Source of the DNA: Escherichia phage Barry
Strand: one strand, 5' to 3'
DNA length: 64,000 nucleotides
Sequence record: LR880803
The position numbers and the translations under genes are program-made. Positions 8,220 to 30,648 of the stretch are shown in pieces. Position 1 is the first letter of the stretch. Each line of letters opens with the position of its first letter. Under the pieces are notes generated by a model, which saw only the letters and a program-made list of their open reading frames with translations, ran no database searches and was not told the origin of the DNA.

Positions 8220-8426
8220 ATGCTTTACAGTCGCGAATTGATGGTTACAACTAACATTAACACAAAGGCAAAACGTTTTTACATGCAAATCTGTGGCGTA
8301 TGGTCCAGAATATCAGAAGCTGACTATTGCAACTATGTAGAAACGGCTATTAATTCGAATTGCTACCTTACAAGAAACACTAAGAAGTTTACAAGACAGA
8401 CAGCAATTTACTACTACGATAAATAA
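8220..8426 (+). CDS. hypothetical small protein
   Basis: 68-aa ORF with leader CTAAACTGGAGAATCTAAAAATG. Confidence 0.4.
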   Translation: MLYSRELMVTTNINTKAKRFYMQICGVWSRISEADYCNYVETAINSNCYLTRNTKKFTRQTAIYYYDK

Positions 8427-8512
8427 AGTACTTTACAAGGGGCTTATAGTTCGATAAAGTAAGCCCCAGATAAAGAGCTTTACTAACTAACCTTAAACTA
8501 GGAGATTCAAAA
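8426..8512 (+). repeat. leader cassette family A, copy 1 (hairpin GGGGCTTA...TAAGCCCC + SD)
   Basis: GTACTTTACAAGGGGCTTATAGTTCGATAAAGTAAGCCCCAGATAAAGAGCTTTAC...GGAGATTCAAAAATG; embedded TTTACA-17-TAAAGT. Confidence 0.7.
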
Positions 8513-8896
8513 ATGGCTTATCGTGCACCGAAATTCATCAACAAAGACAACTTTCGCAAAGTACTGGAGAAGTCACTTGATGAGAATTTTAAAGGCAATA
8601 TTATTGTTGTTCACGCATTCAATTTTAAGTATGATGTAAACGGGAATAGAATCAACCATTACACGGCAACCATGTTAGATGGTACACTATCAAGTGAAAA
8701 AGCCGTACTGAATGCACTAGCAGGACGCGGAAAAGTATTAGTAAGATGCGATAAGCGACGTTATCAGGGTGGCGCATATGGTTATGATGATGCTGTTTAT
8801 CATCTTGAAAATATGGGCTATAAAGTAGAAAAAGCTGGAGTATCGCAAATCATCGGGAGCGATGGTTATGTAACAATCTTCAAAATTAACGAATAA
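8513..8896 (+). CDS. hypothetical protein
   Basis: 127-aa ORF directly after cassette A. Confidence 0.5.
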   Translation: MAYRAPKFINKDNFRKVLEKSLDENFKGNIIVVHAFNFKYDVNGNRINHYTATMLDGTLSSEKAVLNALAGRGKVLVRCDKRRYQGGAYGYDDAVYHLENMGYKVEKAGVSQIIGSDGYVTIFKINE

Positions 8897-8982
8897 AGTA
8901 CTTTACAAGGGGCTTATAGTTCGATAAAGTAAGCCCCAGATAAAGAGCTTTACCACTAAATCCTAAATTGGAGAACTTAAAA
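8896..8982 (+). repeat. leader cassette family A, copy 2
   Basis: near-identical to copy 1. Confidence 0.7.
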
Positions 8983-9276
8983 ATGGCTATTATCAAAAAC
9001 GTTGTAATTGCTGCAAAAACTCGTGATGACGCTCGCGTTATGGCTAAAAAGTTATGCGGGAAAGTGGTTGACAATGGGAAAAAATCTGCTGTAAGATGGG
9101 GCGTAAAGGTTGATAAACAGTTGAAGTTAAAAAATTCACCGATAAACCTTTTTACATGTGTAAACACTATCGGGAAGACAAATGTATACACGAAAAAGGC
9201 ATACATTAGACGCGTAGCATTAACATCCCCCATTCGTACAATGAGAAGTTATGCAAAGCTGAAAAATAACCGATAA
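8983..9276 (+). CDS. hypothetical protein (MAIIKN...)
   Basis: ATG at 8983 follows the cassette SD; track ORF 8968 begins at an in-frame TTG inside the cassette. Confidence 0.5.
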   Translation: MAIIKNVVIAAKTRDDARVMAKKLCGKVVDNGKKSAVRWGVKVDKQLKLKNSPINLFTCVNTIGKTNVYTKKAYIRRVALTSPIRTMRSYAKLKNNR

Positions 9277-9363
9277 AGTACTTTACAAGGGGCTTAAAAG
9301 TTGATATCTTAAGCCCCAGATAAAGAGCTTTACCACTAAATCCTTAAACTAGGAGACTCAAAA
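9276..9363 (+). repeat. leader cassette family A, copy 3 (variant loop, stem preserved)
   Basis: GGGGCTTAA-aagttgatatc-TTAAGCCCC, a compensated 9-bp stem. Confidence 0.7.
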
Positions 9364-9660
9364 ATGAAATTATCGAATAAAGTTCGTGAAAATCTAAGCA
9401 AGTTACTCAACAAAATTGATTTTATCGAGACATCAAGAAATAATCATGATGTTATGGAATGGTTGCACGGCAAAATAAAAGGCCGTCGCGTAGTGATTTG
9501 CTTATGGAATAGTTGCAGGGAGTATAAAAAACCTGTATTGCAAGTAAATATTTATGATGATACTTTTAAAAGTCCAGTAAAGTCTAAAAGTGACTTATTA
9601 GAATCCTATGAGATAACTGTAAATGGCAAAGTATCACGTAAAGAGGAAACACCATGTTAA
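9364..9660 (+). CDS. hypothetical protein
   Basis: 98-aa ORF after cassette SD. Confidence 0.5.
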   Translation: MKLSNKVRENLSKLLNKIDFIETSRNNHDVMEWLHGKIKGRRVVICLWNSCREYKKPVLQVNIYDDTFKSPVKSKSDLLESYEITVNGKVSRKEETPC

Positions 9661-9986
9661 TGACTGGCATCACCGCAATCCTTGCCATTTTCGCGCTATA
9701 TAAGGCATATAAAGCCTATAATCTAGCAAATAAGGCAATCACGCAACAGGTCAATAATAGCCTTGTAATGAGCTTTCTGGAGCGTTTAAGTGATGAACAA
9801 ATAAAACGGTTAGAAATGAGCTTCAGATTTCAATCAAAAACTTATCAAATCAGCGACATTTTCAAAGATGATTTTCAGTTAGTCGATGATTATAATTCTC
9901 TGATAAATGCTTTAAATGTCAGTGACTTAAAAGACTACTACGCTGTAATTGTTCAAGAATTGAGCAAACGAAAAAATTTCTCTTGA
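9654..9986 (+). CDS. hypothetical small membrane protein
   Basis: 110 aa, N-terminal hydrophobic segment GITAILAIFALY; overlaps previous by 7 nt. Confidence 0.4.
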   Translation: MLMTGITAILAIFALYKAYKAYNLANKAITQQVNNSLVMSFLERLSDEQIKRLEMSFRFQSKTYQISDIFKDDFQLVDDYNSLINALNVSDLKDYYAVIVQELSKRKNFS

Positions 9987-10073
9987 TTTTGGTTTTTAAA
10001 ACAAGTAAATTACTAATCAACGGGAGGTAATAACCTCCCCACTAAGTAAAGTCCTTAAACTAGGAGATTCAAA
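9987..10073 (+). repeat. leader cassette family B, copy 1 (hairpin GGGAGG-TAATAA-CCTCCC + SD)
   Basis: TTGATTTTGGTTTTTAAAACAAGTAAATTACTAATCAACGGGAGGTAATAACCTCCCCACTAAGTAAAGTCCTTAAACTAGGAGATTCAAAATG. Confidence 0.7.
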
Positions 10074-10346
10074 ATGTACACTACTAACAACGGTCGCACC
10101 TTAAACGTAACCATTCGTCACTATGTGAACGGTGTAATGCACTTCGAAGATTTACAAGCCGAACAACATATCTTAGATTGGCAACTTGCAGGACTACAAA
10201 AAACTGCTACAGGATACGGGAAAAAGATTCCAACCAGTTGGAAAGTATACTACGAAGGCCGTTTGCGCAGAATTTATCAAGATGTATACAGCAATAGCGC
10301 AACAAGTTACATCATAGTAAAAGGTAAAAAGCTGCATTTAGTGTAA
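10074..10346 (+). CDS. hypothetical protein
   Basis: 90-aa ORF after cassette B. Confidence 0.5.
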   Translation: MYTTNNGRTLNVTIRHYVNGVMHFEDLQAEQHILDWQLAGLQKTATGYGKKIPTSWKVYYEGRLRRIYQDVYSNSATSYIIVKGKKLHLV

Positions 10347-10543
10347 AGTACTTTACAAGGGGCTTATAGTTCGATAAAGTAAGCCCCAGATAAAGAGCTT
10401 TACCACTAAATCCTAAAGCAATAGCGCAACAAGTTACATCATAGTAAAAGGTAAAAAGCTGCATTTAGTGTAAAGTACTTTACAAGGGGCTTATAGTTCG
10501 ATAAAGTAAGCCCCAGATAAAGAGCTTTACCACTAAATCCTAA
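10290..10543 (+). repeat. perfect tandem direct duplication, 2 x 127 bp (3' end of gene 10074..10346 plus cassette A)
   Basis: 10290..10416 and 10417..10543 are identical as read. Confidence 0.8.
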
Positions 10544-10559
10544 ATTGGAGAACTTAAAA

Positions 10560-10964
10560 ATGGCTATTAATAATCGCGAGTTGTCAATCTTAAAAGCACG
10601 TTTGACCGTTAACCGGATTAATGTTATTACGTCATCAGCACCGGACGAAACATTGCACAACATTATTGGGAAGATTCAAAGCGTTATCTTAGACGTTGAA
10701 AACGTAAAAAACTCATTGGCTGACGTTGCAGCAGGTATCACGCTAGACGGTGCACAATATGAAATGTCCGACATGTTAGGCAAATCTAAGGTAATGAATA
10801 AAGAGCTTGATTTGAAAATGTTTCGGTTTGCTGTTAAAGTGTGGCTATCTGTCGAGTATGACGCTAACTTTGCAATCGCTGACTTTTTCGCCACTTGGTT
10901 ACAACGTAATTTGACAAATCATGATTTTCGTGGTATCTGCGATGCAATTTACACAGAACTATAA
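10560..10964 (+). CDS. hypothetical protein (MAINNRELS...)
   Basis: ATG at 10560 after cassette SD; track ORF 10545 starts at an in-frame TTG. Confidence 0.5.
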   Translation: MAINNRELSILKARLTVNRINVITSSAPDETLHNIIGKIQSVILDVENVKNSLADVAAGITLDGAQYEMSDMLGKSKVMNKELDLKMFRFAVKVWLSVEYDANFAIADFFATWLQRNLTNHDFRGICDAIYTEL

Positions 10965-11065
10965 AAATTTCTCTTGATTTTGATTTTTAAAACAAGTAAA
11001 TTACTAATCAACGGGAGGTAATGACCTCCCCACTAAACAAAGTCCTTAAACTAGGAGATTCAAAA
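10965..11065 (+). repeat. leader cassette family B, copy 2
   Basis: same unit as 9987..10073, with GGGAGGTAATGACCTCCCC. Confidence 0.7.
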
Positions 11066-11269
11066 ATGGCTATTATTAACGGTTTAACCATTGAAACTAC
11101 ACACATCAAAGATATTAAAGTCGGTGATGTAGTTCTCTTTCACGGCGTAGAAAAAACCGTCACGGCGAAAGATATTACAGAAGACTCCTTCATGGGTAGG
11201 TCACTCTTCGGTGATTCTTATTGCTTAGGTTACCGTGCAGTTTTAAAAGTTGTAAAAAATAACCGATAA
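11066..11269 (+). CDS. hypothetical small protein (MAIINGL...)
   Basis: ATG at 11066 follows cassette SD; track ORF 11021 starts upstream inside the cassette. Confidence 0.45.
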   Translation: MAIINGLTIETTHIKDIKVGDVVLFHGVEKTVTAKDITEDSFMGRSLFGDSYCLGYRAVLKVVKNNR

Positions 11270-11354
11270 AGTACTTTACAAGGGGCTTATAGTTCGATAA
11301 AGTAAGCCCCAGATAAAGAGCTTTACCACTAAATCCTAAACTGGAGATTCTAAA
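11270..11354 (+). repeat. leader cassette family A, copy 6
   Basis: same unit as 8426..8512. Confidence 0.7.
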
Positions 11355-11897
11355 ATGAAATGCTTTCACGGTACTACCCAAGAAAATTTCCTCAACCTGA
11401 TTAATAACGGTGACAAGCCATCAGGTGCATGGAATTGTTCGGATATGGACGGCAATTTTTACGTGTACCCAGAAAATAAAATCTATGGCGACGATGAGGA
11501 AGAGATAATCTCTGAAGGTATCCAGCAAGCGTTAGGTAATGCCACTATTACGGCCGCTTTCCAGATGAAAACACAAAATATTGTTATCTTAGAACTTGAT
11601 ATCCCAGAGGATGACCTAAATGACGATTATTCTTGTGATAATATGTCTGGCGTAGCAAGTTTTACAGAATACTTCGATTTAAATTGGATTAAAAAGGTTT
11701 ACGTAACAGAGTTTAACGCTATGTATTCGCCTTTTTGTCTTCCTTCATTGGATAACCCAAATTTAAATTATCTTGATGAGTCTCTGGAGCTTCTTGCTAA
11801 AAGTGTCCAACAGTCGGACAGTATTCAGGTTTTTTGTGACATCATGGACACACTAACGGGAAACATCGCAGAAGAGGATTTAAAGAGCTTTTTCTAA
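11355..11897 (+). CDS. hypothetical acidic protein
   Basis: 180-aa ORF after cassette SD. Confidence 0.5.
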   Translation: MKCFHGTTQENFLNLINNGDKPSGAWNCSDMDGNFYVYPENKIYGDDEEEIISEGIQQALGNATITAAFQMKTQNIVILELDIPEDDLNDDYSCDNMSGVASFTEYFDLNWIKKVYVTEFNAMYSPFCLPSLDNPNLNYLDESLELLAKSVQQSDSIQVFCDIMDTLTGNIAEEDLKSFF

Positions 11898-11930
11898 AAA
11901 CCTATGCAATCGCCTTATAAACACTGATTA

Positions 11931-11949
11931 GCCCCTCACAGGGGCTTTT
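11931..11949 (+). terminator. rho-independent terminator
   Basis: GCCCCT-CACA-GGGGC followed by TTTT. Confidence 0.55.
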
Positions 11950-11963
11950 AAGAGGCTTAAATC

Positions 11964-12197
11964 ATGCTTACAACCGTTTATCTTATCCTTTCTATTTGTA
12001 ATGGTCATTCATGTGATTTTAAAGGGCTTGAGGAGTTTACAGGAAGTAAAGAAAATGCTGTTCAGGTCTGTCAGATAGCAAGGCAAGACTACCCCGCCAG
12101 TGATGACATACAATGTTACTTTAAGACAGAAGATGAAGATGGTATCTATTTCGATAGTGTAGACGGTCAATATGAAATAATTATAGAAAAAGACTAG
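11964..12197 (+). CDS. hypothetical small protein
   Basis: 77-aa ORF; weak SD. Confidence 0.35.
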   Translation: MLTTVYLILSICNGHSCDFKGLEEFTGSKENAVQVCQIARQDYPASDDIQCYFKTEDEDGIYFDSVDGQYEIIIEKD

Positions 12198-12287
12198 ACA
12201 AGCCTGATAAAAATCTGTAAATTACTAATCAACGGGGAGGGAATGACCTTCCCCACTAAACAAAATCCTAAACTGGAGATTCAAAAA
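12198..12287 (+). repeat. leader cassette family B, copy 3 (stem variant GGGGAGGG/CCTTCCCC)
   Basis: TGTAAATTACTAATCAACGGGGAGGGAATGACCTTCCCCACTAAACAAAATCCTAAACTGGAGATTCAAAAAATG. Confidence 0.7.
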
Positions 12288-12629
12288 ATGGCTTATGTAA
12301 CCGTAATTACTGATAAAGAGGGTTCATCTTGGTCAACTCAGGTTAGTGATAAGATGTCGCCTATGCAGTGCCTAAAATACTTTGAACAGTGGAACAAAGG
12401 CGAGGACACAAGCCCCTTTCAAGTGATGCAGATTATCCATGTAGACAATGAAGGGAAGAAAACGACTTTAAACAGCGAGTTCTATGCAACCCGATTTGAA
12501 ACGAGATGTAAAACGATGAAGTTATTACGTGAATCCGGTTATGCCCATATCGCCGCGTTAATCTGGGATGACCTGCTAAAAAGTCAGCGTATCAGCTATG
12601 TAAAACCTGAAAAAATATTCATCAGTTAA
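12288..12629 (+). CDS. hypothetical protein (MAYVTVITDKEG...)
   Basis: ATG at 12288 after cassette SD. Confidence 0.45.
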   Translation: MAYVTVITDKEGSSWSTQVSDKMSPMQCLKYFEQWNKGEDTSPFQVMQIIHVDNEGKKTTLNSEFYATRFETRCKTMKLLRESGYAHIAALIWDDLLKSQRISYVKPEKIFIS

Positions 12630-12650
12630 TCAATAACTTACAAAAAACTT

Positions 12651-12679
12651 TCAAAAAAGTATTGACAACGCCCCTTGAC
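12651..12679 (+). promoter_or_regulatory. candidate sigma70-like promoter (tandem TTGACA boxes)
   Basis: TTGACA-acgcccc-TTGACA ... TAGATT in a 220-bp gap. Confidence 0.3.
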
Positions 12680-12769
12680 ATTGGTAGATTTGTTCGAGGG
12701 GGTTTATCTAAAAGGGATTAACTTAAAAGATTCTTTATAGATAAACTTAAAAAATTGCTTGCAATCAGA

Positions 12770-12850
12770 TATCAAAACAAGTAAATTACTAATCAACGGG
12801 AGGTAATAGCCTCCCCACTAAACAAAGTCCTTAAACTAGGAGATTCAAAA
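12770..12850 (+). repeat. leader cassette family B, copy 4
   Basis: AAAACAAGTAAATTACTAATCAACGGGAGGTAATAGCCTCCCCACTAAACAAAGTCCTTAAACTAGGAGATTCAAAAATG. Confidence 0.7.
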
Positions 12851-13381
12851 ATGAACAAATTTCAAGCTATCAACTACATTCGCTCAAATGCTGTAATGTC
12901 TAAGCCTGTTAAAGATACCTATGAATTTCGCTGCAATGGGGTACACTTTGCAACCATCACTAAATCAGAAAACGGGGCTTATTACGTTCATCGTCGTAAT
13001 GTTGCAACCGTTGTAGTCTCTCACTTTATGCAAGCTGTAGCAGAGTTATTACCGCTATTCTTAGGGATTTACTTGGATGAGTGTAAAAACGTTCACAACC
13101 ACGTTAAAAACCTTTTAAACGGTTATAAAATGGCTTATGAACGTTCTATCAAGTCACTAAACAAGTTTTACAATGCACCTGCAAATACTGTTTCAATGGC
13201 TTATGATGTAAACGGTGAGTTAGTTAGTCTCTTTAAAGTGGAAGAGATTAAACTGTATAATTTACGTCCTAGTGGTTACTCTAAGACTCTTGGTGAAGGT
13301 TTAACGTTCAATATCAAGAACTTAGAAAAAACTTTAAAAGACATTGAAAAAGATATTGACGAGACACTTAAAAGTCTGTAA
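12851..13381 (+). CDS. hypothetical protein
   Basis: 176-aa ORF after cassette SD. Confidence 0.5.
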   Translation: MNKFQAINYIRSNAVMSKPVKDTYEFRCNGVHFATITKSENGAYYVHRRNVATVVVSHFMQAVAELLPLFLGIYLDECKNVHNHVKNLLNGYKMAYERSIKSLNKFYNAPANTVSMAYDVNGELVSLFKVEEIKLYNLRPSGYSKTLGEGLTFNIKNLEKTLKDIEKDIDETLKSL

Positions 13382-13447
13382 ATTGTCAATCAACGGGGAG
13401 GGAATGACCTTCCCCACTAAATAAAGTCCTAAACTGGAGTTATCAAG
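13376..13447 (+). repeat. leader cassette family B, copy 5
   Basis: stop codon of the upstream gene lies inside the unit (cTGTAAATTG...). Confidence 0.7.
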
Positions 13448-13711
13448 ATGGAAAACGTAGAATTAACCACACTTTTACAAATTGCAACCGACAAAGAAAA
13501 CGTAGCTTTATTTCACCGCATCGAAAGTGATTTGTTCAATGGTGAAATCATCAAAGAGTCTTACGAGGTTGTTGGATTCAAAGATGGTAAAACATTTGGA
13601 TTCTTTGACCTCGAAAAAGGCAACGCTGTTACAAAATATGATGTTTTATCTTGTGAGATTCTTACAAAATACAACGAAAAAAGGCTTGCAACATACGCCA
13701 ATATGCAGTAA
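13448..13711 (+). CDS. hypothetical small protein
   Basis: 87-aa ORF after cassette SD. Confidence 0.45.
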   Translation: MENVELTTLLQIATDKENVALFHRIESDLFNGEIIKESYEVVGFKDGKTFGFFDLEKGNAVTKYDVLSCEILTKYNEKRLATYANMQ

Positions 13712-13777
13712 ATTACTAATCAACGGGAGGCGATAACCTCCCCACTAAATAAAACCCTTAAACTAGGAGATTCAAAA
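13706..13777 (+). repeat. leader cassette family B, copy 6
   Basis: CAGTAAATTACTAATCAACGGGAGGCGATAACCTCCCCACTAAATAAAACCCTTAAACTAGGAGATTCAAAAATG. Confidence 0.7.
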
Positions 13778-14026
13778 ATGGCAACTATCCGCGCTACTGT
13801 TAACGAGTTCGGTTTTTCCTCTCTGGATGTTAAATTTGACATTGCAGGCACTGATAACGCCTTTGAAATGGTGAAAGGTCTTATCAGTCAGACCATCAAA
13901 GACTATAATCCTTCTGATGAGTTCTGGAAAGAAACAAAACAGGAAGTTCTCAAAGAGGGTTATTCTTATCACTATTGGGGTGAAAAAATTGTCTCTCTGT
14001 ACTACGACAAAGAAGGCACTAACTAA
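13778..14026 (+). CDS. hypothetical small protein
   Basis: 82-aa ORF after cassette SD; followed by terminator. Confidence 0.5.
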   Translation: MATIRATVNEFGFSSLDVKFDIAGTDNAFEMVKGLISQTIKDYNPSDEFWKETKQEVLKEGYSYHYWGEKIVSLYYDKEGTN

Positions 14027-14066
14027 ACGCCGCAGCGGGGCTAAATAGCCCCAGATACCTTTATAC

Positions 14067-14088
14067 AGCCCCTCACAGGGGCTTTTTT
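14067..14088 (+). terminator. rho-independent terminator closing the small-gene array
   Basis: AGCCCCT-CACA-GGGGC followed by TTTTTT; a second hairpin GGGGCTAAATAGCCCC lies just upstream. Confidence 0.6.
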
Positions 14089-14092
14089 ACGT

Positions 14093-15708
14093 CTATCCAA
14101 TCCTTATACAATCCCTTTCCTCACCTTTTCAGAATCTTATCAGACCTTAAAAGCAATAACTCTATAGTCTACTCTATAGCCTTTTATCAAATCAACTTAA
14201 ATATAAGCCAATAACCCCAGAAAGGGGATGGCCCACTTAAACGCTCTATAAAGCGCTATAACAACCTTATCAATCTAACTTAAGGGATTGCATTAACTCA
14301 CCCTTAAAAGCTCTTTACAGGGCTTTATAGAGGCTTAAAAGAATCTTATAAGGTTATGAGCTTTATTGTCTCGTTAGTATCTTGTGAATAGTTAAACAAT
14401 CCCCTTGATAGTCACTAAAAAGTATGTTATAGGGGCTATAAAGTTACTTCAAAGTTACGTAAAAGGGGCTATAAAGTTACGTAAATGCTAACCCCCTTAA
14501 CATTTTCTTAACAATTTCTTAACAATCCCTACATAGTTATGCTTGTTAGAGACTTGTTAGCCCCTTGTTAAATCTCTGTTAAAATCACGTAAAAGCCTTG
14601 TAAGAGTCTTTGACATAGCCTTAAAAGCTCCTGTAAAGCCCTATAAAGAGGTATCTGTACAGTTGGGTGATAGATACTAGGAAGAGACTTAAAAGAGCTT
14701 ATAAAGAGCTATAGAGAGCTTTTAAGAGGTATGTTTAAAGAATCACTAAGAAAGGAAAGGGAACGATAAGAAAGAAGTAGTGACCATGTTAATAGCTTGT
14801 TAAAAAGATTAAACACTTGTTAGAAACTTGTTAATTATCTTAATTGGTATTGTTACCAATCCCTACAAAATAACTCTTAAAAATTAACTTGTTAGCTCTT
14901 GTTAGTCATCTGTTAAGCCTCTGTAAAGACTATGTATCAACTATTAAGAAACTGTTAAGCCCTTGTTAGTTCTGTTAAGAATCTGTTAAGACCTTTGAAG
15001 AGTTGTTAAGAAGATGTGAGAGCTGTTAAGAGATTGTTAAGGATATTTTAAAATTTTGCAAAGTACTTGTAAGGGAGCTGTTAAGGGCTACCAAGCAGAT
15101 ATACATCCTAATCAGATATTTTTCAGTTCCTTCAAAGACCCTAAAAAATGACTTGATAGTCCTATTTTATAAAAATTTTAAGATTCTGAATAATTACCTA
15201 TACAGTCTTTTAAAAATACAGGTAGAAACAGGCTTATAAGATACCTTGTTAGTACCGTGTTAGACCTTGTGAGATAAGGTCTGTAAAGATATCCCTGTTA
15301 AGTTTGTTAAAACAGTCTATATAGAGGCTTAGTAATACCTAGTGAACACCTATAGAGAGTGTCATAGCTGACATAGAGATTAAGAGGTGTATAGGGGCTT
15401 CTAAGAGGGTATAGAGAGACGGTTAAGGTGATTGTATAGGTTGTTAAGAAGGCTTGTTAGAAGAGTGTTTAGAAGGCTTGTTAGAGGGCTTGTTAGAAGG
15501 GTTATACAGAAGGGCTATTAAGACCACTAGATAGTTACTAAGATACTATATAGTACTATATAACTATATATATAGAGAGTAAGATTAAGAAGGTTGTTAA
15601 GAAGGATAGATATTTTGTTCACATATAATGGTGACCCAGAGGTTGGGACAACCGATAAAATTTTATAAAAATTAAAAAGCCCCCAATTAAGGAGGCTCTT
15701 AAGATATT
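14093..15708. repeat. 1.6-kb ORF-free, AT-rich region packed with degenerate short motifs (CTTAAAAG, TATAAAGAGG, CTTGTTAG/CTGTTAAG, GGCTTGTTAGAAG)
   Basis: no ORF of 60 aa or more on either strand; lies between convergent + and - gene blocks. Confidence 0.6.
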
Positions 15709-16302
15709 TTAAATCAGTGTTTCCAGAACTGCCTTCAGTGATGACTTGGTTGTCTGATAAAAATGAGTAAATCCATTGTTGTTATCGAATATCTGCATCA
15801 TGATATCATCACCCTTGATTGGGTAAACTCGGATATCATAGTGAAAACCATTAAAGACACAAGAGCCATTACAGAATGCACTAAAGTCATCAACTGAGAT
15901 ATACTCTTCATGTCCTGTGATTTTTATACAAATGCCTTTACTTGGTCTCTTAGGGTTGATATCTTCCATCACAGACATACTCTGTCCACCAAGAGATACC
16001 ATAGTGACCACTTTACGGTTCTTCTGTTTAAAGTACATCTTAACTTTCTGCAAAGTGTCTTCATAGAACGGATAAGACCTTTCTACAAAGATTCCTTCAA
16101 GTGGCTCTTTACCATTTTCAACTTCTCTGTTATGCCGTACTGCAAAGATAATTTGTTCGAACCAGTCAAGATTTTCTTCGGAGAGTGCTTCTCGAATATC
16201 ACTCCAGTCAAGGACTAGGTAGTTACCTTCAACTTCTTTTAAGTTATCTTTTTCCATAGCTATCACACCATTATCGTAAAACTTGGTAGGCTGGTACTGC
16301 AA
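15709..16302 (-). CDS. hypothetical protein
   Basis: 197-aa ORF. Confidence 0.5.
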   Translation of the reverse strand: MQYQPTKFYDNGVIAMEKDNLKEVEGNYLVLDWSDIREALSEENLDWFEQIIFAVRHNREVENGKEPLEGIFVERSYPFYEDTLQKVKMYFKQKNRKVVTMVSLGGQSMSVMEDINPKRPSKGICIKITGHEEYISVDDFSAFCNGSCVFNGFHYDIRVYPIKGDDIMMQIFDNNNGFTHFYQTTKSSLKAVLETLI

Positions 16303-22524: not shown

Positions 22525-22916
22525 AGATAATCCTCTTGTCTTCTGTAATTTTGAAAGAACAGGTACAGACCAATTTCAGAGGATGAATAGTAGATTAATT
22601 CTACCCTTTTTGATTCCTTACAGTGATTGGTATTCTTACCTTTCTTCGGTTTATTTGATTTTCTCATTAAGTCTCCTTTGTAGAACAAGGCAGACCTACA
22701 GCTTTAAGTAAGATGGTACAGTAATCCATACAACAAGTCAAGAACTATTGCAAGTTAAAAAAGTTGTTGACAAAGTACTTGACAAGGTGTAGGCTTATAA
22801 ATACTTAGAAGATAACTTAAAAGGTTCCTCTAAAAAGGCTATTTAAACAGATATCTTTCTGGATATCTATCTTTTATCTTAAAAGCCTTTTAAGAGGTCT
22901 TATAAGAGGCATACCA

Positions 22917-23288
22917 ATGAAAAACAGAACAAACAAAGGCCAGTTTAAAAAAGGCCAGTCTGGAAACCCATCTGGAAGACCAAAAGGCTCTCGTAACAAA
23001 AGTTCACTCGTAAAAGCTCAACTGACCATTGATAATTCTGCTGAGTTTGCTGCAAAGTTGTTTGAGGCGATTGTTACAAGGGATGCTGCTAAGCTTGCAG
23101 AGTTCGGTTTGACGACTGACGATGTAAACCTGAAGTCGATGATGGAAGCTGGTAAAACTATCATGACCCACTCAGCAGGTGAGATGAAAGCGATTGCAGC
23201 AGACACTAAGAAAACCCCTGATAATGGTGGTCAAACCCAGACAGATAACAAACCAACGTTTTCTGCTGTAGCGACTCTCAAAAAATAA
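22917..23288 (+). CDS. hypothetical protein with basic Gly/Pro-rich N-terminus
   Basis: 123 aa; SD AAGAGG 8 nt upstream; N-terminal GQSGNPSGRPKGSRNK. Confidence 0.45.
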   Translation: MKNRTNKGQFKKGQSGNPSGRPKGSRNKSSLVKAQLTIDNSAEFAAKLFEAIVTRDAAKLAEFGLTTDDVNLKSMMEAGKTIMTHSAGEMKAIAADTKKTPDNGGQTQTDNKPTFSAVATLKK

Positions 23289-24949: not shown

Positions 24950-25026
24950 CTCTGTTTAGCTCAGATTGGTAGAGCGTTCCGTTTGGGGCGGTAAGGCCGG
25001 AGGTTCAAGTCCTCCAACAGAGACCA
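24950..25026 (+). tRNA. tRNA, anticodon read as TGG (Pro)
   Basis: acceptor CTCTGTT/AACAGAG, T-arm GGAGG-TTCAAGT-CCTCC, CCA encoded. Confidence 0.6.
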
Positions 25027-25033
25027 AATTAAT

Positions 25034-25111
25034 GTTCCAGTAGACAAAATGGTATAGTCACCACTCTTTCAAAGTGGATATCTGAGGGTTCAAATCCCTT
25101 CTGGAACGCCA
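25034..25111 (+). tRNA. tRNA, anticodon TTC (Glu)
   Basis: acceptor GTTCCAG/CTGGAAC, anticodon stem CCACT/AGTGG loop CTTTCAA, CCA encoded. Confidence 0.65.
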
Positions 25112-25203
25112 GTTTTGACAGAAGACCAATTACAGCAAACTTAATCTTATTCATCTGAAGGTAAATCGGACAAAGAAGAGATTTGGTCTGGTCATTAAGA
25201 ATT

Positions 25204-25279
25204 GCGGGTATAGAGAAAGGGCGTCTCACATGTCTCATTAGCATGGTATCGGCAGGTTCGACTCCTGCACCCGCCTCCA
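25204..25279 (+). tRNA. tRNA-like, anticodon CAT (Met/Ile2 type); boundaries approximate
   Basis: T-arm GCAGG-TTCGACT-CCTGC, anticodon stem CATGT/GCATG loop CTCATTA; acceptor pairing imperfect. Confidence 0.45.
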
Positions 25280-25357
25280 ATTTTGCAGAAGACCGTATTC
25301 AGCAACAAAATACTTTTTTGCGGATAAAAGAAAAAACACGGTCTGGCAATGTATTAA

Positions 25358-25434
25358 GGTTAGGAAGCACATAAGGTATGTGCGGTCGCCTGTTAAGCGA
25401 ATGGCACAGGGTTCGAATCCCTGACTAACCGCCA
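25358..25434 (+). tRNA. tRNA, anticodon GTT (Asn)
   Basis: acceptor GGTTAGG/ACTAACC, T-arm CAGGG-TTCGAAT-CCCTG, CCA encoded. Confidence 0.6.
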
Positions 25435-25442
25435 AATTAAAT

Positions 25443-25530
25443 GTGTCGTTATCCCGTAGATGGTAGCGGTGGGGACTGTAAATCCCTTGTCATTGAGACT
25501 CGGTAGGTTCGACTCCTACACGGCACACCA
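25443..25530 (+). tRNA. class II tRNA (long variable arm), anticodon GTA (Tyr)
   Basis: 88 nt; acceptor GTGTCGT/ACGGCAC; T-arm GTAGG-TTCGACT-CCTAC; loop CTGTAAA. Confidence 0.65.
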
Positions 25531-25535
25531 ATAAA

Positions 25536-25612
25536 GGCTATGTAGTTTAACTGGAGAAAATACTCCCCTGTCACGGGAGATGATGTGAGTTCAAGTCTCA
25601 TCGTAGCCGCCA
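25536..25612 (+). tRNA. tRNA, anticodon GTC (Asp)
   Basis: acceptor GGCTATG/CGTAGCC, anticodon stem CTCCC/GGGAG loop CTGTCAC. Confidence 0.65.
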
Positions 25613-25634
25613 ATTTTGAGAGGGCTATTTAGCC

Positions 25635-25672
25635 CCTCCCTTAAAGAGTTCTTACGAGTATTCTTTAAGGGA
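25635..25672 (+). ncRNA. 12-bp perfect hairpin between tRNAs (possible processing signal or small RNA)
   Basis: CTCCCTTAAAGA-gttcttacgagtat-TCTTTAAGGGAG. Confidence 0.35.
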
Positions 25673-26042
25673 GCAGAAGACCAAATACAGCAAGAATGTA
25701 TGAAATTTCAAGCCAATTTAATTTTGAAAATTTAAAACTTGGTCTGGCTCAACAAATTTACAGAAGGCCGTTTACAGCAAAACTTAAACAATCTATTTCT
25801 CCGGTACAGAAAAGGCGAAGGTTCGATTCCTTCACTCGGCAGATGTCGAGTTGGTGTAATGGTAGCACTTAAGATGATAAACAACGGTCTGGTAATTACC
25901 TTTGTAGATAAGTTATTAAGCTTACTTGTGAGTATGCGACCACAAAGGGTGAATGGGTAAATTCTAGATTTAAACCCAAAAAAGGCACATCGCTACAGAC
26001 CTTAAGCAAGTCTGGGTAGCTTATCTACAAAGATAATTTAAT

Positions 26043-26118
26043 GGAAGTGTAGCAGAATGGTGATGCGGCAGACTTTTAATCTGACAGGCGATGGGTTCGA
26101 ATCCCTCCACTTCTACCA
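26043..26118 (+). tRNA. tRNA, anticodon TTT (Lys); weak T-stem
   Basis: acceptor GGAAGTG/CACTTCT, loop CTTTTAA, T-loop TTCGAAT, CCA encoded. Confidence 0.5.
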
Positions 26119-26122
26119 ATAT

Positions 26123-26199
26123 GGTTCAGTCGCAGATAAGGTAATGCAAGGGTCTCATAAGCCCTATGAATGTGGGTTCGATTCCCATCTGAACCTCCA
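26123..26199 (+). tRNA. tRNA, anticodon CAT (Met/fMet/Ile2 type)
   Basis: acceptor GGTTCAG/CTGAACC, loop CTCATAA, T-loop TTCGATT. Confidence 0.6.
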
Positions 26200-26200
26200 A

Positions 26201-26276
26201 GCTGGTATAGTTAAGAAGGTTATAACACTCCCCTGATAAGGGAACATCGGTGGTTCGATTCCACCTACCAGTACCA
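26201..26276 (+). tRNA. tRNA, anticodon GAT (Ile)
   Basis: acceptor GCTGGTA/TACCAGT, T-arm GGTGG-TTCGATT-CCACC, loop CTGATAA. Confidence 0.6.
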
Positions 26277-26290
26277 ATTTCAATAAAGTT

Positions 26291-26319
26291 GTTGACATTG
26301 AGATGTGACTACTTTATAG
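26291..26319 (+). promoter_or_regulatory. internal sigma70-like promoter in the tRNA island
   Basis: TTGACA - 17 bp - TATAGT. Confidence 0.5.
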
Positions 26320-26522
26320 TAACCTTAGTTTTCGTTGCGTAGCGTCTATTTTGCAAATTTAAAATAAATGCAAACGACAATGTTTTTCTGGCAGTAGCTT
26401 GATAGGCTAAACACCAGTGAGGTCTTCCAATCCCTCATCAAAGAATTTGGCGTACTCGCCCACGGTATGATTAATAAGGTGGGCATCTTTAAGGGCTTTC
26501 TAAGAGAGTCTTTAAAGATAAT

Positions 26523-26599
26523 GCACCCTTAGTTCAATTGGATAGAGCAACGGTCTTCTAAATCGTTAGTTACAGGTTCGAATCCTGTAGGGTGTACCA
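26523..26599 (+). tRNA. tRNA, anticodon TCT (Arg)
   Basis: acceptor GCACCCT/AGGGTGT, D-arm GTTCAATTGGATAGAGC, T-arm ACAGG-TTCGAAT-CCTGT. Confidence 0.65.
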
Positions 26600-26742
26600 A
26601 ATAGTTAGCAGATTACTTAGACGGCCTTAGCGGGTCTTCCTGTAGGGAGGTGGTCTGTATCTCATGTTTTCCAGAACATGTAAATAATCTGAGAAGAAGC
26701 TTGACAGTGTTGAGATAATACGGTAAGCTTCGAATTATAGTA

Positions 26743-26820
26743 TGGGACGATGTTAAGACTCTAAGGCATGAGCAACGGCCTCCAAAACCGTTTCAAAGGG
26801 GTTCAACTCCTCCGTCCCAT
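26743..26820 (+). tRNA. tRNA, anticodon CCA (Trp); CCA not encoded
   Basis: acceptor TGGGACG/CGTCCCA, loop CTCCAAA, T-loop TTCAACT. Confidence 0.55.
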
Positions 26821-26837
26821 GCTAAAGATTGTTTCGG

Positions 26838-26924
26838 AGAGAGTGGCGGTCAACGGAGACCAACCAGCCTTGAAAACTGGTGCTGCTGGAAACGGTACGG
26901 GTTCAACTCCTGCACTCTCTGCCA
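26838..26924 (+). tRNA. class II tRNA, anticodon TGA (Ser)
   Basis: 87 nt; acceptor AGAGAGT/ACTCTCT; loop CTTGAAA; long variable arm. Confidence 0.6.
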
Positions 26925-26948
26925 AAATAATTTTTAAGGTGGTGATTA

Positions 26949-27289
26949 TGAAGAAAGGTTCAGTAGGTGAAATTGCTACACAATTAGCTTTCCTCAAAAG
27001 AGGTTATGAAGTATATTCACCAGCTACAGATAATGCAAAGTATGACTTTCTAGTTCACAAAGATGGTTTGATTGAAACTGTTGAGGTAAAATCAACATCA
27101 GTCAAAAGAGGTGAACTTTGGAGAGTGCAACTGAAAAGAGTTCGTTCTAACAAGAATGAAAATAGAATAATGAATTTTGATAACTCTCAAGTTGATTACT
27201 TAGCTGTTTACATTGAACCACTTGATAAAGTCGTCATCTACAAAGCTAAAGATGTCAAGTCTAAGACTGAACTTAGCTTAAAGATTTAA
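26949..27289 (+). CDS. small PD-(D/E)xK-type nuclease-like protein embedded in the tRNA island (Hjc/resolvase-like motif order)
   Basis: ATG at 26949 behind strong SD AAGGTGGTGA; GEIATQLAFLKRGYEV ... YDFLV ... VEVKS matches the E...D...E-x-K arrangement; track ORF 26768..27289 upstream part overlaps tRNAs and is not coding. Confidence 0.45.
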
Positions 27290-27530
27290 AGCCAAGCTTC
27301 ATTCGGATGTCGCTTTGGTATCCCTCGTGTATTGTCGTACACTGTCAAAGCACCTAGTAGGTGTCACGGAGAAGAGATAATATCAAGCTCTCCAAAGGTT
27401 CTAGTCACCGGATTAAACAAGACTATGCAAAGACCTATTTAGGTCTTTTTAGAGGGCTTCTAAGGTTATTAGTCGCTTGTTGTGGAACCTTGTTGCTCAG
27501 GTTCTTAGAAGTTCTCTAAAAAGATTTAAT

Positions 27531-27607
27531 GCACCTATAGCCCAACTGGTAGAGGCAGCAGACTTAGAATCTGCTCAGTGTGAGTTCGAATCTCTCTAGG
27601 TGTACCA
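27531..27607 (+). tRNA. tRNA, anticodon read as TAG, short variable arm (identity uncertain)
   Basis: acceptor GCACCTA/TAGGTGT, anticodon stem GCAGA/TCTGC loop CTTAGAA, T-loop TTCGAAT. Confidence 0.5.
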
Positions 27608-27614
27608 AATTAAT

Positions 27615-27690
27615 GCAGGTGTAGCAAAATGGTTATGCGGCTGACTCTTAATCAGTAAGACGATGGGTTCAATTCCCTCCACCTGTACCA
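27615..27690 (+). tRNA. tRNA, anticodon read as CTT (Lys), paralog of 26043..26118
   Basis: acceptor GCAGGTG/CACCTGT, loop CTCTTAA. Confidence 0.5.
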
Positions 27691-27696
27691 AACAAT

Positions 27697-27772
27697 GGGG
27701 TCATAGTTTATATGGTTAAAATTCGAGTTTTGCAAACTTGGGAACTGAGTTCAATTCTCAGTGACTCCACCA
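27697..27772 (+). tRNA. tRNA, anticodon tentatively TGC (Ala)
   Basis: acceptor GGGGTCA/TGACTCC, T-arm CTGAG-TTCAATT-CTCAG. Confidence 0.5.
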
Positions 27773-27778
27773 ATTAGT

Positions 27779-27853
27779 GCATCCATAGTTTAAACGGGAA
27801 AATTACAGTCTTCCAAACTGAGGTTGAGGGTTCGATTCCCTCTGGATGCTCCA
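27779..27853 (+). tRNA. tRNA, anticodon TCC (Gly)
   Basis: acceptor GCATCCA/TGGATGC, T-arm GAGGG-TTCGATT-CCCTC, loop CTTCCAA. Confidence 0.6.
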
Positions 27854-27860
27854 AATTAAT

Positions 27861-27935
27861 GCTCCTATCGTATAATTGGTTATTACGGTTGCCTTGTAAG
27901 CAACTTATCAGGGTTCGAGTCCTTGTGGGAGCACC
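27861..27935 (+). tRNA. tRNA, anticodon TGT (Thr)
   Basis: acceptor GCTCCTA/TGGGAGC, anticodon stem GTTGC/GCAAC loop CTTGTAA. Confidence 0.65.
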
Positions 27936-27939
27936 AATT

Positions 27940-28028
27940 CAGAGGTCAAGTGAAAGACCGCTTTGAGTCAACTGAAGACCGTAACAAATTCCACGAAGTT
28001 GAGTTAGCGGCACAACTTCAGACCTCTT
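27940..28028 (+). ncRNA. structured inter-tRNA spacer (candidate small stable RNA or processing element)
   Basis: long-range complement CAGAGGTC ... GACCTCT enclosing inner hairpin GAAGTTG...CAACTTC. Confidence 0.3.
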
Positions 28029-28032
28029 TCAT

Positions 28033-28107
28033 ACTCGCTTAGTTTATATGGTAAAACATCACCCTTACAAGATGAAGAAAAAGGTTCAAGTCCTTTAGTG
28101 AGTACCA
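28033..28107 (+). tRNA. tRNA, anticodon TAC (Val)
   Basis: acceptor ACTCGCT/AGTGAGT, D-stem GTTT/AAAC, T-arm AAAGG-TTCAAGT-CCTTT, loop CTTACAA. Confidence 0.55.
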
Positions 28108-28108
28108 T

Positions 28109-28186
28109 GTTCCAGTATCCCAATTGGCAGAGGATGCAAGCTCAAACCTTGTATTAGTGACGGTTCGAATCCGTCTTGGAACACCA
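28109..28186 (+). tRNA. tRNA, anticodon read as CAA, short variable arm (identity uncertain)
   Basis: acceptor GTTCCAG/TTGGAAC, T-arm GACGG-TTCGAAT-CCGTC. Confidence 0.5.
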
Positions 28187-28191
28187 ATTTT

Positions 28192-28267
28192 GCAGGATTA
28201 GTTCAAATGGATAGAGCAACAGTCTACGAAGCTGTTAATAGGGGTTCGAATCCCTTATCCTGCGCCA
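28192..28267 (+). tRNA. tRNA, anticodon ACG (Arg)
   Basis: acceptor GCAGGAT/ATCCTGC, D-arm GTTCAAATGGATAGAGC, loop CTACGAA. Confidence 0.65.
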
Positions 28268-28286
28268 ATTTAAAGAGGCTATTTAG

Positions 28287-28844
28287 ATGAGATATTTGAA
28301 GTATGCTTCATGGATTTTCTTAGCTTTGTTAGAGCCATTTGCAGCAATCTTAGCAGTTATCTTAGCACCTTTTGTAGTTCCATTCTACAGTGAGAAGAAA
28401 GGACACTTACCTTTCGGGTTCAGATGGATGGAGACATATGACAACCCAATTGATGGTGATGAAGGTCACGTTAAAAGATGGGCTAATATTAGATGGATTG
28501 GTAAACTAGGTGTCTACATGCAAAGAGTCGGATGGCTCTGGAGAAACAAAGCTTATAACTTCTCTTACCATGTATTAGGAAGAGATGTAAGAGATGTTAC
28601 TAAGTGGAAAGGTAATATCAACGTAAGTTCTGACCCCGAAGATAATCAGACAGGTTATCTCCTAATGTGGAACAGTAATGCTTGGGGATTATTCGCTTTT
28701 ATCCCATCAATTAAAATCTTTGGTAAACAATTTTACTGGAGAATTTATATTGGATGGAAACTAAAAAGTGTTGTCCCAGAAGAAAGAGCATTCTCAAGGG
28801 AAAGAGTTATGTTGGCATTCTTTATTCATCCACTGAGAAAGTAA
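28287..28844 (+). CDS. hypothetical Trp-rich membrane protein embedded in the tRNA island
   Basis: 185 aa; SD AAAGAGG; N-terminal hydrophobic segment FLALLEPFAAILAVILAPFVVPF. Confidence 0.45.
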   Translation: MRYLKYASWIFLALLEPFAAILAVILAPFVVPFYSEKKGHLPFGFRWMETYDNPIDGDEGHVKRWANIRWIGKLGVYMQRVGWLWRNKAYNFSYHVLGRDVRDVTKWKGNINVSSDPEDNQTGYLLMWNSNAWGLFAFIPSIKIFGKQFYWRIYIGWKLKSVVPEERAFSRERVMLAFFIHPLRK

Positions 28845-28852
28845 AGATTTAA

Positions 28853-28928
28853 AGGGGATTAGTTTACAAGGTTAAAACCTCGGTCTTTGAAATCGAAGAA
28901 GTTGGTTCAATTCCAACATCCCCCGCCA
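28853..28928 (+). tRNA. tRNA, anticodon TTG (Gln); 1:72 mismatch
   Basis: T-arm GTTGG-TTCAATT-CCAAC, D-stem GTTT/AAAC, loop CTTTGAA. Confidence 0.55.
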
Positions 28929-28930
28929 AT

Positions 28931-29009
28931 GCTCCATTACTCCAATTGGCAGAGAGGCCAGACTTAAAATCTGTGTTATGTATCGGTTCGAATCCGATAT
29001 GGAGTACCA
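28931..29009 (+). tRNA. tRNA, anticodon read as TAA (identity uncertain)
   Basis: acceptor GCTCCAT/ATGGAGT, T-arm ATCGG-TTCGAAT-CCGAT, loop CTTAAAA. Confidence 0.5.
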
Positions 29010-29014
29010 AATTT

Positions 29015-29090
29015 AGCGGTATAGCATAACTGGCAATGCAGCAGCCTCTGAAGCTGTCCTATTAAGGTTCAAATCCTTATGCCGCTGCCA
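29015..29090 (+). tRNA. tRNA, anticodon CTG (Gln)
   Basis: acceptor AGCGGTA/TGCCGCT, D-stem GCAT/ATGC, loop CTCTGAA. Confidence 0.55.
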
Positions 29091-29121
29091 CTTCTAAGGA
29101 TTCTTGCGAGAGTCCTTAAAT

Positions 29122-29197
29122 GTGGCCTTATCATAAACGGTAATGACCCATGCTGTGAACATGGTCTATACGGGTTCAAATCCCGTAGGTCACCCCA
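29122..29197 (+). tRNA. tRNA, anticodon GTG (His)
   Basis: acceptor GTGGCCT/AGGTCAC, anticodon stem CCATG/CATGG loop CTGTGAA, T-arm ACGGG-TTCAAAT-CCCGT. Confidence 0.6.
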
Positions 29198-29203
29198 ATT
29201 TAT

Positions 29204-29279
29204 AGTCCAAGTAGCTTATATGGTTAAAGCGCGTGTCTGAAAAACATGAGAAGAGGGTTCAAATCCCACTGGACTACCA
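29204..29279 (+). tRNA. tRNA, anticodon GAA (Phe)
   Basis: D-stem GCTT/AAGC, loop CTGAAAA, T-loop TTCAAAT, CCA encoded; boundaries approximate. Confidence 0.55.
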
Positions 29280-29296
29280 ATTTCAAAGGTGCTTAA

Positions 29297-30030
29297 TGAA
29301 AGAGATGACAGAACAAGGTAAGGAGATTTTTAATCTCTTAAAAACTGGTAAAGGGTTCTCTAACCCGCTTATTACTGGTGCAGCAGTTCTCGGTGGAACC
29401 GTAGCTGCTTCTACATCACTTGTAAGCTCTATTAGTTCTGTAACAGACCCTACAATGAAGGAGAAACTTGTTGCTGCTGGACTTACAACAGTCCTTCTAA
29501 ACAGCTTTACAACAAGCCTTACAAGCACTACAGCAACTACTAAAACTCTGACAGACTACGGTCAAAAATCTATTGATGAGTTTTCATCACGTATGCAGGT
29601 AGCAAAGGGGTATTCCAATGTTATGGGTGCAGCAGGAGAACAAGTTGGTTGTACACCATTCAGTGGTATCATGGGTGTTGCTACAGAGTATGGTCAAAAA
29701 GCTATTGACATGATGAACAGTACACTAGATAGTGTTAATGGTGTGTTAAGTGACTTACAAGATGCTATTGATAAGGGTCTTGATACTGTTTCTGATTTAG
29801 CTAACCAAGCTGTCAGTAAGATTAATGAAGGTATTTCAAAGATTACAGCTTATGCAGATGAAGTTGTGCAGATGATTGAAGAAGAAGCTGCCCTTATTGC
29901 AGAGTACCTTAAAACGAATATCAATGGGTTCTTAGCAGGTATCTTACCAGACTGGTTTGACGATGCTTGTAAAACTGGTGTGATTGACACTATTGCAACA
30001 CCAGAAATGAAGAGCGCATTACAGAAATAA
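29297..30030 (+). CDS. hypothetical Ser/Thr/Ala-rich protein
   Basis: ATG at 29297 (MKEMTEQG...); track ORF start 29233 lies inside the preceding tRNA. Confidence 0.45.
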
Positions 30031-30031
30031 T

Positions 30032-30124: not shown

Positions 30125-30128
30125 ATTT

Positions 30129-30627: not shown

Positions 30628-30648
30628 TTCTATTTGCGGAGGTGCTTA

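Follow-up and report, generated by a model that had tools for sequence, protein, structure and literature searches.

Chromosome ends of Escherichia phage Barry: a probable direct terminal repeat and its phased word arrays

Escherichia phage Barry (sequence record LR880803) was analyzed over a 64-kb stretch, here called the window, in which two convergent gene blocks are separated by an unannotated 1.7-kb gap at positions 14027-15708. Comparison with related genomes indicates that this region very probably contains the termini of the linear phage chromosome and their direct terminal repeat (DTR). The fullest explanation, in which we have good confidence, is that the gap is the terminal region of a linear, non-permuted chromosome, processed by terminase, with a DTR of ~602 nt between unique left and right flanks, the three parts into which the gap can now be divided. 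The kind of element is already known, as it would be an ordinary terminal repeat; its fine structure, which comprises arrays of short words phased at 11 nt, has apparently not been described.

Chromosome ends and the terminal repeat

The region matches 255 phage records (171 over at least 80% of the query), nearly all of them Felixounavirus (Felix O1, wV8, VpaE1 and their relatives), and the best matches reach 91-92% identity over the full length; Barry is a Felixounavirus, a myophage of the Felix O1/wV8 type. The homologous 1.65 kb carries no annotation in the wV8 record, and the region is not described in the Felix O1, wV8, VpaE1, Moogle, BASEL, comparative Felixounavirus or PhageMaP papers. 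In most of the ~250 Felix-O1-like records the gap is left blank or filled with spurious small 'hypothetical proteins', and many have a collapsed repeat and an arbitrary start at rIIA, which makes the location of the ends a matter of consequence for annotation and genome orientation. A copy of the whole Felix-O1-type terminal region, 85.6% identical, is also found at positions 135380-137090 of GU169904.1 (147 kb, named Staphylococcus phage SA1), probably a chimeric or contaminated assembly.

The boundaries of the repeat, at ~14491 and 15092 (602 nt, +/-3), were transferred by homology from relatives that are 83-92% identical to Barry in this region. The first 613 nt of the Ro111lw record equal the last 613 nt (100%), with base 1 aligning to window position 14491 and the last base to 15092; the 581 nt found identically at both ends of the D4 record map likewise to 14491-15092, and the 544 nt at both ends of MET-P1-301 fall within the same window repeat. 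By homology to these three relatives, the same sequence would stand at both ends of the virion DNA, as in a short DTR of the T7 type. PhageTerm has classified the 613-bp repeat of Ro111lw as a T7-like short DTR (PMC6454146), assigned a DTR to D4 (PMC11737134) and a 439-bp DTR to Hafnia phage SPARTY (PMC8928762), and short DTRs have been suggested for Fifi106 and Fifi318 (PMC11984208); the PhageTerm calls in these four papers describe fixed ends in the relatives. Independent records that open at the same bases are in line with fixed ends. The EcSzw_1 record is a permutation opened exactly between window positions 15091 and 15092, that of BPS15Q2 starts at 14477, and two SPT-1 contigs abut at ~14485/14486.

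Two other candidate signs of a terminus were discarded. RPN213, which would have placed a terminus at window position 15170, is an arbitrarily opened circular permutation, and in the bumzen and garuso records the features labeled 'repeat_region' cover only a short TTAACA tandem repeat, not the DTR.

Since the DTR sequence is present in a single copy in the window, the Barry record is a collapsed, circularly drawn map. The genome ends map inside the gap, and the 'convergent' blocks are therefore the two ends of the chromosome, with genes transcribed toward each. An initial annotation, made from the window sequence alone, had listed a packaging site among several options for the gap and had suggested a terminus analysis of virion DNA. 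Such analyses exist for close relatives and place both virion ends inside the region, in support of that option; what the annotation did not recognize in its convergent gap was a collapsed DTR with two flanks.

Sequence comparison indicates that the position of the DTR is conserved in two genera. Erwinia phage phiEa21-4 (Kolesnikvirus) has a 1.19-kb gap, poor in open reading frames (ORFs), at the syntenic convergent position, with CTTCTAA words in the left flank, then TTAACA words and, after a flip in orientation, TGTTAAG words. In the Erwinia phage M7 record the same 444 nt stand at either end, and many Kolesnikvirus records open at the same base as M7. The M7 boundaries align to window positions 14488 and 15094, only 2-3 nt from the boundaries of the Ro111lw type. 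By BLAST, only the right part of the DTR (14787-15087) still matches the Erwinia phages. In a cross-genus alignment the middle of the repeat is diverged and unequal in length, and the zones around the two boundaries are kept: TTACG..|..CC.C.TT.ACATTT..TTAACAA.TT.TTAAC. on the left, and on the right TGTTAAGA words, ATTTTGCAAAG, exactly 29 nt, and AAGCAGATATACA. The repeats of other Ounavirinae (Ro111lw, 613 bp; D4, 581 bp; M7, 444 bp; SPARTY, 439 bp) thus share homologous DNA, a syntenic place and boundary blocks with that of Barry. The published notes consulted on these repeats give just a length and the label 'T7-like'; word arrays, a flip in orientation, flanks and their conservation go undescribed in them.

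Architecture and conservation of the word arrays

The repeat and its surroundings are built of short words that are rare elsewhere. CTTGTTAG occurs in 10 copies inside the region, where ~0.04 would be expected from the rest of the window, and CTGTTAAG in 7, with no reverse-complement copy of either. The combined density of TGTTAAG and TTGTTAG is 12.5 per kb inside versus 0.29 per kb outside, a 43-fold difference. Self-matches of 5-mers peak at a lag of 11 nt (z = 29 over the whole region, z = 47 in 14491-15092), whereas in the right flank the peak lies at lag 12, and a coding control shows nothing comparable. The word counts and the lag-11 peak bear out the dense short repeats seen in the initial annotation.

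The DTR begins with three TTAACA words and continues with ~27 TGTTA(A/G) words through the right boundary and beyond. The first group consists of three CTTAACA words with an 11-nt period at 14496-14526, just inside the left boundary (TRF, period 11, 95% match); these are TGTTAAG words on the minus strand, pointing to the left end, and they are kept in 24 relatives and in the Erwinia phages. All words from 14544 on have the opposite orientation, past the right boundary and as far as 15595, which gives a strand bias of 21 forward to 3 reverse words, with all three reverse words at the left boundary. Printed in rows of 11 nt, positions 14544-14653 of the plus strand resolve into ten successive units in register with mostly invariant columns (TGTTAG, TGTTAG, TGTTAA, TGTTAA, CGTAAA, TGTAAG, TTGACA, TTAAAAG, TGTAAAG, ATAAAG). 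Word positions and TRF place a further seventeen TGTTA(A/G) or TGTAA(A/G) words on the plus strand at 14787-15087, up to the right boundary, within which lie a 31-nt super-repeat (14944-15041) and the block ATATTTTAAAATTTTGCAAAG (15043-15063).

The right boundary itself falls in the block AGGGAGCTGTTAAGGGCTACC|AAGCAGATATACAT (15072-15106, plus strand), a candidate cut or recognition site by the alignments of the relatives and across genera. From 15077 (GCTGTTAAGG...) onward this block is invariant in 24 relatives, as is GCTGTTAAGGGCTACCAAGCAGATATAC at the boundary among the relatives, and the spacing TTTTGCAAAG-N29-AAGCAGATATACA is preserved in the Erwinia phages. Read inward from either virion end, the sequence runs ..CCCTTAACA and then phased TTAACA words. 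Comparison of the left end with the reverse-complemented right end reveals a common block, with a score of 36 in the window and 44 in M7 compared with shuffle maxima of 25-26; this block is not the same in the two genera, and the ends of a chromosome thus change in concert.

Conservation was measured by aligning 24 distinct relatives to the window. The left flank is the most variable part (81-95% identity to the window), the DTR is 87-95% identical and the right flank 94-97%, so that the right flank is conserved as well as or better than the adjacent coding gene gp028 (82-98%). Per-column conservation steps up at the left boundary, from ~0.8 over most of the left flank to 0.93 just inside the repeat, and the words are conserved above the 5-nt spacers between them (0.972 vs 0.911; Mann-Whitney p = 3e-7). 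Insertions and deletions are quantized, with 11 distinct events of 11 nt and others of 22, 10-12, 24 and 99 nt; those in the right flank favor 12 and 24 nt. Helical phase is thus kept as units come and go, an outcome that slippage by itself would also produce.

The same variation could be read as neutral. Apart from two cut sites, the gap might be a mere spacer, made of decayed early promoter and hairpin cassettes that replication slippage has amplified and homogenized between converging transcription units, in which case the 11-nt periodicity would be functionless. Copy number does vary among relatives by whole units, and the left-flank words (GGGGCTATAAAGTTAC..., CTTAAAAG, CTGTAAAG) look like parts of the early-gene cassette CTTTACAAGGGGCTTATAGTTCGATAAAGTAAGCCCC; this least conserved part of the gap is also where a spacer fits best. 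Yet the rest of the phage genome is densely packed, and across relatives the DTR and right flank keep 87-97% identity, a level not below that of coding DNA, with the words more conserved than the spacers. The orientation flip and the boundary blocks, moreover, persist in the Erwinia phages where other sequence has diverged. On this evidence a neutral spacer is rather unlikely.

The recurrence of related words elsewhere in the window, as claimed in the initial annotation, holds in part. Promoter-type words of the form CT[TAG][AT]AAAG recur at 22816, 22830, 22878, 26510 and 27516, and this family, which has 41 copies outside the region, also forms part of early-promoter cassettes; the TGTTAAG family is absent from these positions. 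The interval 22740-22920 is a divergent promoter region between minus- and plus-strand blocks, with TTGACA-type promoters and a cluster of CTTAAAAG and CTTATAAG words, which gives three CT[TAG][AT]AAAG words in 65 nt.

A proposed packaging role and its analogues

In phages of the T7 type, replication yields concatemers in which neighboring genomes have a single repeat at their junction; fixed sites are cut by terminase, and through duplication of the repeat both ends of each virion DNA come to carry it. The DTR region of Barry would, by the same scheme, be the genome-to-genome junction in replicating concatemers, and recognition and cutting by terminase is its likely role. Terminase would cut at the two DTR boundaries, with the conserved boundary blocks as candidate cut or recognition sites, and duplication of the repeat would leave a copy at both ends of each virion DNA. 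The phased TGTTA(A/G) words, which are inverted at the left boundary and keep the direct orientation from that point up to and across the right one, could then line up along one face of the helix as a binding lattice for a protein that recognizes the ends, either the small terminase or another. That this lattice serves packaging is a tentative proposal, to which we give slightly less than even weight. The idea of a protein-binding array, already raised in the initial annotation, fits the phasing, the word-versus-spacer conservation and the quantized indels, but Pfam and PHROG searches of the ten flanking proteins yield no DNA-binding candidate.

The enzyme expected to act on the junction is the large terminase subunit (TerL), encoded at 30634-32250 on the plus strand (Pfam Terminase_6N/6C; PHROG 979). 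Directly upstream, where a small terminase would be expected, lies a 66-aa ORF (30427-30627, plus strand) with no function assigned by Pfam or PHROG. Positions 24950-30204 hold 26 clustered tRNA genes, every one of them on the plus strand; the cluster ends ~430 nt before the TerL gene.

Several points weigh against this reading. The placement of the boundaries comes from the ends of relatives rather than from virion DNA of Barry itself, and boundary calls of different laboratories disagree by 2-3 nt at each end. The original Felix O1 paper only inferred 'short terminal repeats', and the Moogle genome note likens the TerL of that phage to headful packagers (PMC4319497). Among the ten flanking proteins and the 66-aa ORF, Pfam and PHROG reveal no small terminase, Rep or Par candidate. 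DNA folding gives no significant hairpin at either DTR boundary (z near 0), unlike the processing model of T7, and a T7-style boundary hairpin was rejected as a component of the site. The contrast between words and spacers carries ascertainment and alignment bias, and slippage in tandem repeats alone yields an 11-nt periodicity and 11-nt indels. The headful statement for Moogle (PMC4319497) is itself in conflict with the fixed short repeats called by PhageTerm in other Ounavirinae (PMC6454146, PMC8928762).

The closest analogue is the terminal repeat of T7, a resemblance of architecture and not of homology. Both phages have a short, non-permuted direct terminal repeat in non-coding DNA. In the T7 sequence, the 160-nt repeat contains three ACCTAAAG words; CCTAAAG and CATAAAG words stand beside it on the left at lag 13 (z = 46), and a looser array on the right has lag 12. 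Short A/T-cored words (CCTAAAG, CATAAAG, CTTAAAG) with a near-helical period are thus found within and on both sides of the repeat, and the Barry arrays (lag 11 in the DTR, lag 12 in the right flank) show this arrangement too, by analogy only. The short-repeat arrays of T7 were reportedly named SRL and SRR by Dunn and Studier in 1983. The sequence at the edge of the repeat matters for fitness in T7, where PhageMaP found insertions at positions 142 and 162 to be deleterious; the intergenic data of that study are for T7 only, with none for Bas63. The differences are equally clear. There is no sequence homology between the two regions, and the repeat measures 160 nt in T7 versus 602 nt in Barry, with a word period of 12-13 nt versus 11 nt. 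In Barry most words lie inside the repeat, with an orientation flip close to the left boundary; the junction has neither an adjacent promoter for a phage RNA polymerase nor a boundary hairpin, and the phage is a myovirus with genes transcribed toward both ends.

Packaging sites of other phages offer a second comparison. P1 pac has four plus three TGATCA/G hexamers around the cut, lambda cosB has R sites, and SPP1 has pacL and pacR with phased bent DNA. These sites resemble the Barry region in that several copies of a short word flank a cut, and in the use of phased or bent DNA for wrapping by the small terminase. They are much smaller, at 100-250 bp with 3-7 words versus ~30 words over ~1.1 kb in Barry, and they produce cohesive or headful ends instead of fixed terminal repeats; in Barry, no small terminase turned up among the proteins searched.

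Arrays of this format are also bound by proteins with other tasks. The parC site of plasmid R1 consists of ten 11-bp iterons bound by ParR, and an ejection-pacing factor has been proposed for the injection-stop region of T5. In Barry, the arrays might likewise bind a putative non-packaging factor, such as a centromere-like partition adaptor, a host nucleoid protein, an ejection-pacing factor or a decoy for a host defense sensor. Like R1 parC they have direct repeats spaced at exactly 11 nt, an arrangement on which protein and DNA assemble into a helical filament; they lie on the first or last DNA through the portal; and a few unrelated viral contigs have similar TTAACA/TGTTAA inverted arrays. 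In contrast to R1, this is a virulent phage with no ParM/ParR-type genes, no ParA-, ParM- or ParB-like gene is found among the scanned neighbors, and none of the ten flanking proteins belongs to a Pfam or PHROG partition family. Membership in the parC class is therefore unsupported, as is the partition site entertained in the initial annotation. In both genera the arrays go with the DTR boundaries, a sign of end processing, and only a slim chance is left for a binder unrelated to packaging.

A bolder form of the packaging proposal, possible but doubtful, holds that the phased words are a dedicated protein-loading lattice that sets both chromosome ends symmetrically, and that the right flank, 0.6 kb of unusually conserved DNA, holds the packaging-initiation site and possibly also an origin. 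The words may, on this proposal, point outward at each boundary and co-evolve at both ends in each genus. Were it true, the Ounavirinae would lend themselves as a model for the way in which non-T7 myoviruses measure out a short terminal repeat and duplicate it, and the inverted TTAACA/TGTTAA lattices of like design in unrelated viral contigs would point to a broader class of signals for ends or origins. In any case, the boundary blocks, the orientation flip and the phase-keeping indels are testable packaging-signal candidates in a group of myoviruses without experimental packaging studies, and the engineering of therapeutic Felix-O1-type phages would have to preserve the junction.

A scan of IMG/VR with the pattern TGTTAR-N5-TGTTAR-N5-TGTTAR returned mostly chance matches and a handful of unrelated contigs with similar arrays. 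These contigs, one of them 169 kb long, carry TTAACA or CTAACA arrays phased at 11 nt (contig L119, 7230-7530; L122, 10870-10980; L111, 590-760, and L147, 4380-4500; L107, 4740-4990; L124, 50-230). Several arrays flip to TGTTAA like the Felix-O1-type repeat, and one lies at the start of its contig. The neighbors of the arrays gave no informative Pfam match, the one hit being to DUF2726, a domain of unknown function. The contigs may reflect chance ascertainment or a wider signal class.

Non-coding character, flanks and neighboring genes

The gap is bounded by a plus-strand gene ending at 14026 and a minus-strand gene ending at 15709. The longest ORFs within 14027-15708 are of 35, 31 and 31 aa, which bears out the ORF-free character noted at the outset, and 14212-15029 is the longest part of the 64-kb window in which all six frames are shorter than 60 codons from stop to stop. 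Shuffled versions of the region give maximum open frames like those of the real one, and the gap therefore behaves as non-coding DNA that has not been specially purged of ORFs. On the left it is closed by the end of the plus-strand block (early, rIIA side; 14027-14092), which contains a hairpin at 14037-14052 and an intrinsic terminator at 14067-14083 followed by a T run (DNA fold of -13.6 kcal/mol, z = -3.4). On the right, a terminator scan finds the intrinsic terminator of the minus-strand block at 15675-15700, minus strand, which is marked as a terminator in wV8. Across the region only these two outer terminator hairpins fold better than shuffles, and their presence at 14067-14083 (+) and 15700-15675 (-) agrees with the convergent gene blocks of the initial annotation.

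Small RNAs or micropeptides encoded in the gap would be one way to account for the high conservation of the right flank, where a 12-nt array with 12- and 24-nt indels would hold a reading frame. Nothing else points in that direction: no Rfam 15 family reaches its gathering score, and the three matches at E <= 1 (E = 0.13-0.77) are at chance level; no ORF exceeds 35 aa; promoter-like sites are no commoner than in shuffles, with none above 9 of 12 inside the region; terminators close the region on both sides; and folding z-scores inside it are unremarkable. Both options, tiny peptides for want of an ORF above 35 aa and small RNAs for want of an Rfam match and a good promoter, had figured in the initial annotation, and neither is sustained; such products are barely credible here.

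The left flank (14093-14490), delimited by the word map and repeat families, would, in the virion, be the unique DNA next to the DTR copy at the right end. It contains CTTAAAAG, CTATAAAG and CTCTATAG words in mixed orientation and a 33-nt duplication at 14418-14483, shows indels of 11, 21, 25 and 99 nt relative to 23 relatives, and has words in common with the early-promoter cassettes. In these cassettes, at window positions 8360-13780, each small early gene is preceded by a promoter-like TTTACA-N17-TAAAGT sequence, a GGGGCTT..AAGCCCC hairpin and a ribosome-binding site. The words shared between the cassettes and the left flank are CTTAAAAG, CTGTAAAG and GGGGCT. One cassette of 127 nt is tandemly duplicated at 10287-10540 (99%).

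Beside this flank lies the last plus-strand gene, a homologue of wV8 gp027 (13778-14026), which occurs as two alleles among the relatives (L019-L039), ~66-70% or 86-96% identical to the window. Allele and left flank co-vary only in part, which speaks for a mosaic recombination boundary beside the chromosome end. On the opposite side of the gap, the adjoining minus-strand gene is a homologue of wV8 gp028 (15709-16257).

The right flank (15093-15674), defined by conservation, A+T ranking and TRF, would, in the virion, be the unique DNA placed after the DTR copy at the left end. This flank holds further plus-oriented TGTTAG words and, at 15142-15221, the most A+T-rich 80 nt of the whole window (80% A+T). 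TRF confirms the two repeats pointed out in the initial annotation near 15440-15500 and 15545-15580 as a 12-nt GGCTTGTTAGAA array of 4.9 copies at 15441-15500, whose copy number varies among relatives, and a run of three ACTATATAG units at 15543-15572. Deletions of 12 and 24 nt occur in this flank in 20 relatives.

The composition of the right flank also invites the reading of a replication origin in or beside the repeat, which could coexist with the termini; the TGTTAAG words would be iterons for an initiator and 15142-15221 an unwinding element. As in the iteron origins of lambda (ori) and plasmids (oriV), a word array lies next to an A+T-rich stretch: the most A+T-rich 80 nt come within 50 nt after a dense array in one orientation (14889-15087). 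The flank is also as conserved as coding DNA. Typical iterons measure 17-22 nt and come in 3-7 copies, unlike the shorter and far more numerous words of Barry, which are of 6-8 nt at 11-nt spacing over more than 1 kb. Scanning 14027-15708 brought up neither a DnaA box, even with 1 mismatch allowed, nor an IHF consensus, and the region likewise lacks Chi and GATC. No initiator-like gene lies nearby, all ten neighbors being of unknown function by Pfam and PHROG, and the turn in GC skew near 16 kb falls where gene orientation switches and is thus uninformative here. An origin at this place is quite improbable.

The absence of GATC extends to the entire 64-kb window, where it occurs 0 times against ~183-220 expected. 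Another 21 six-base palindromes, each with an expectation of at least 8.6, are likewise missing from the window, including GAATTC, AGATCT, TGATCA and ATGCAT, a case of very strong avoidance of restriction and Dam sites.

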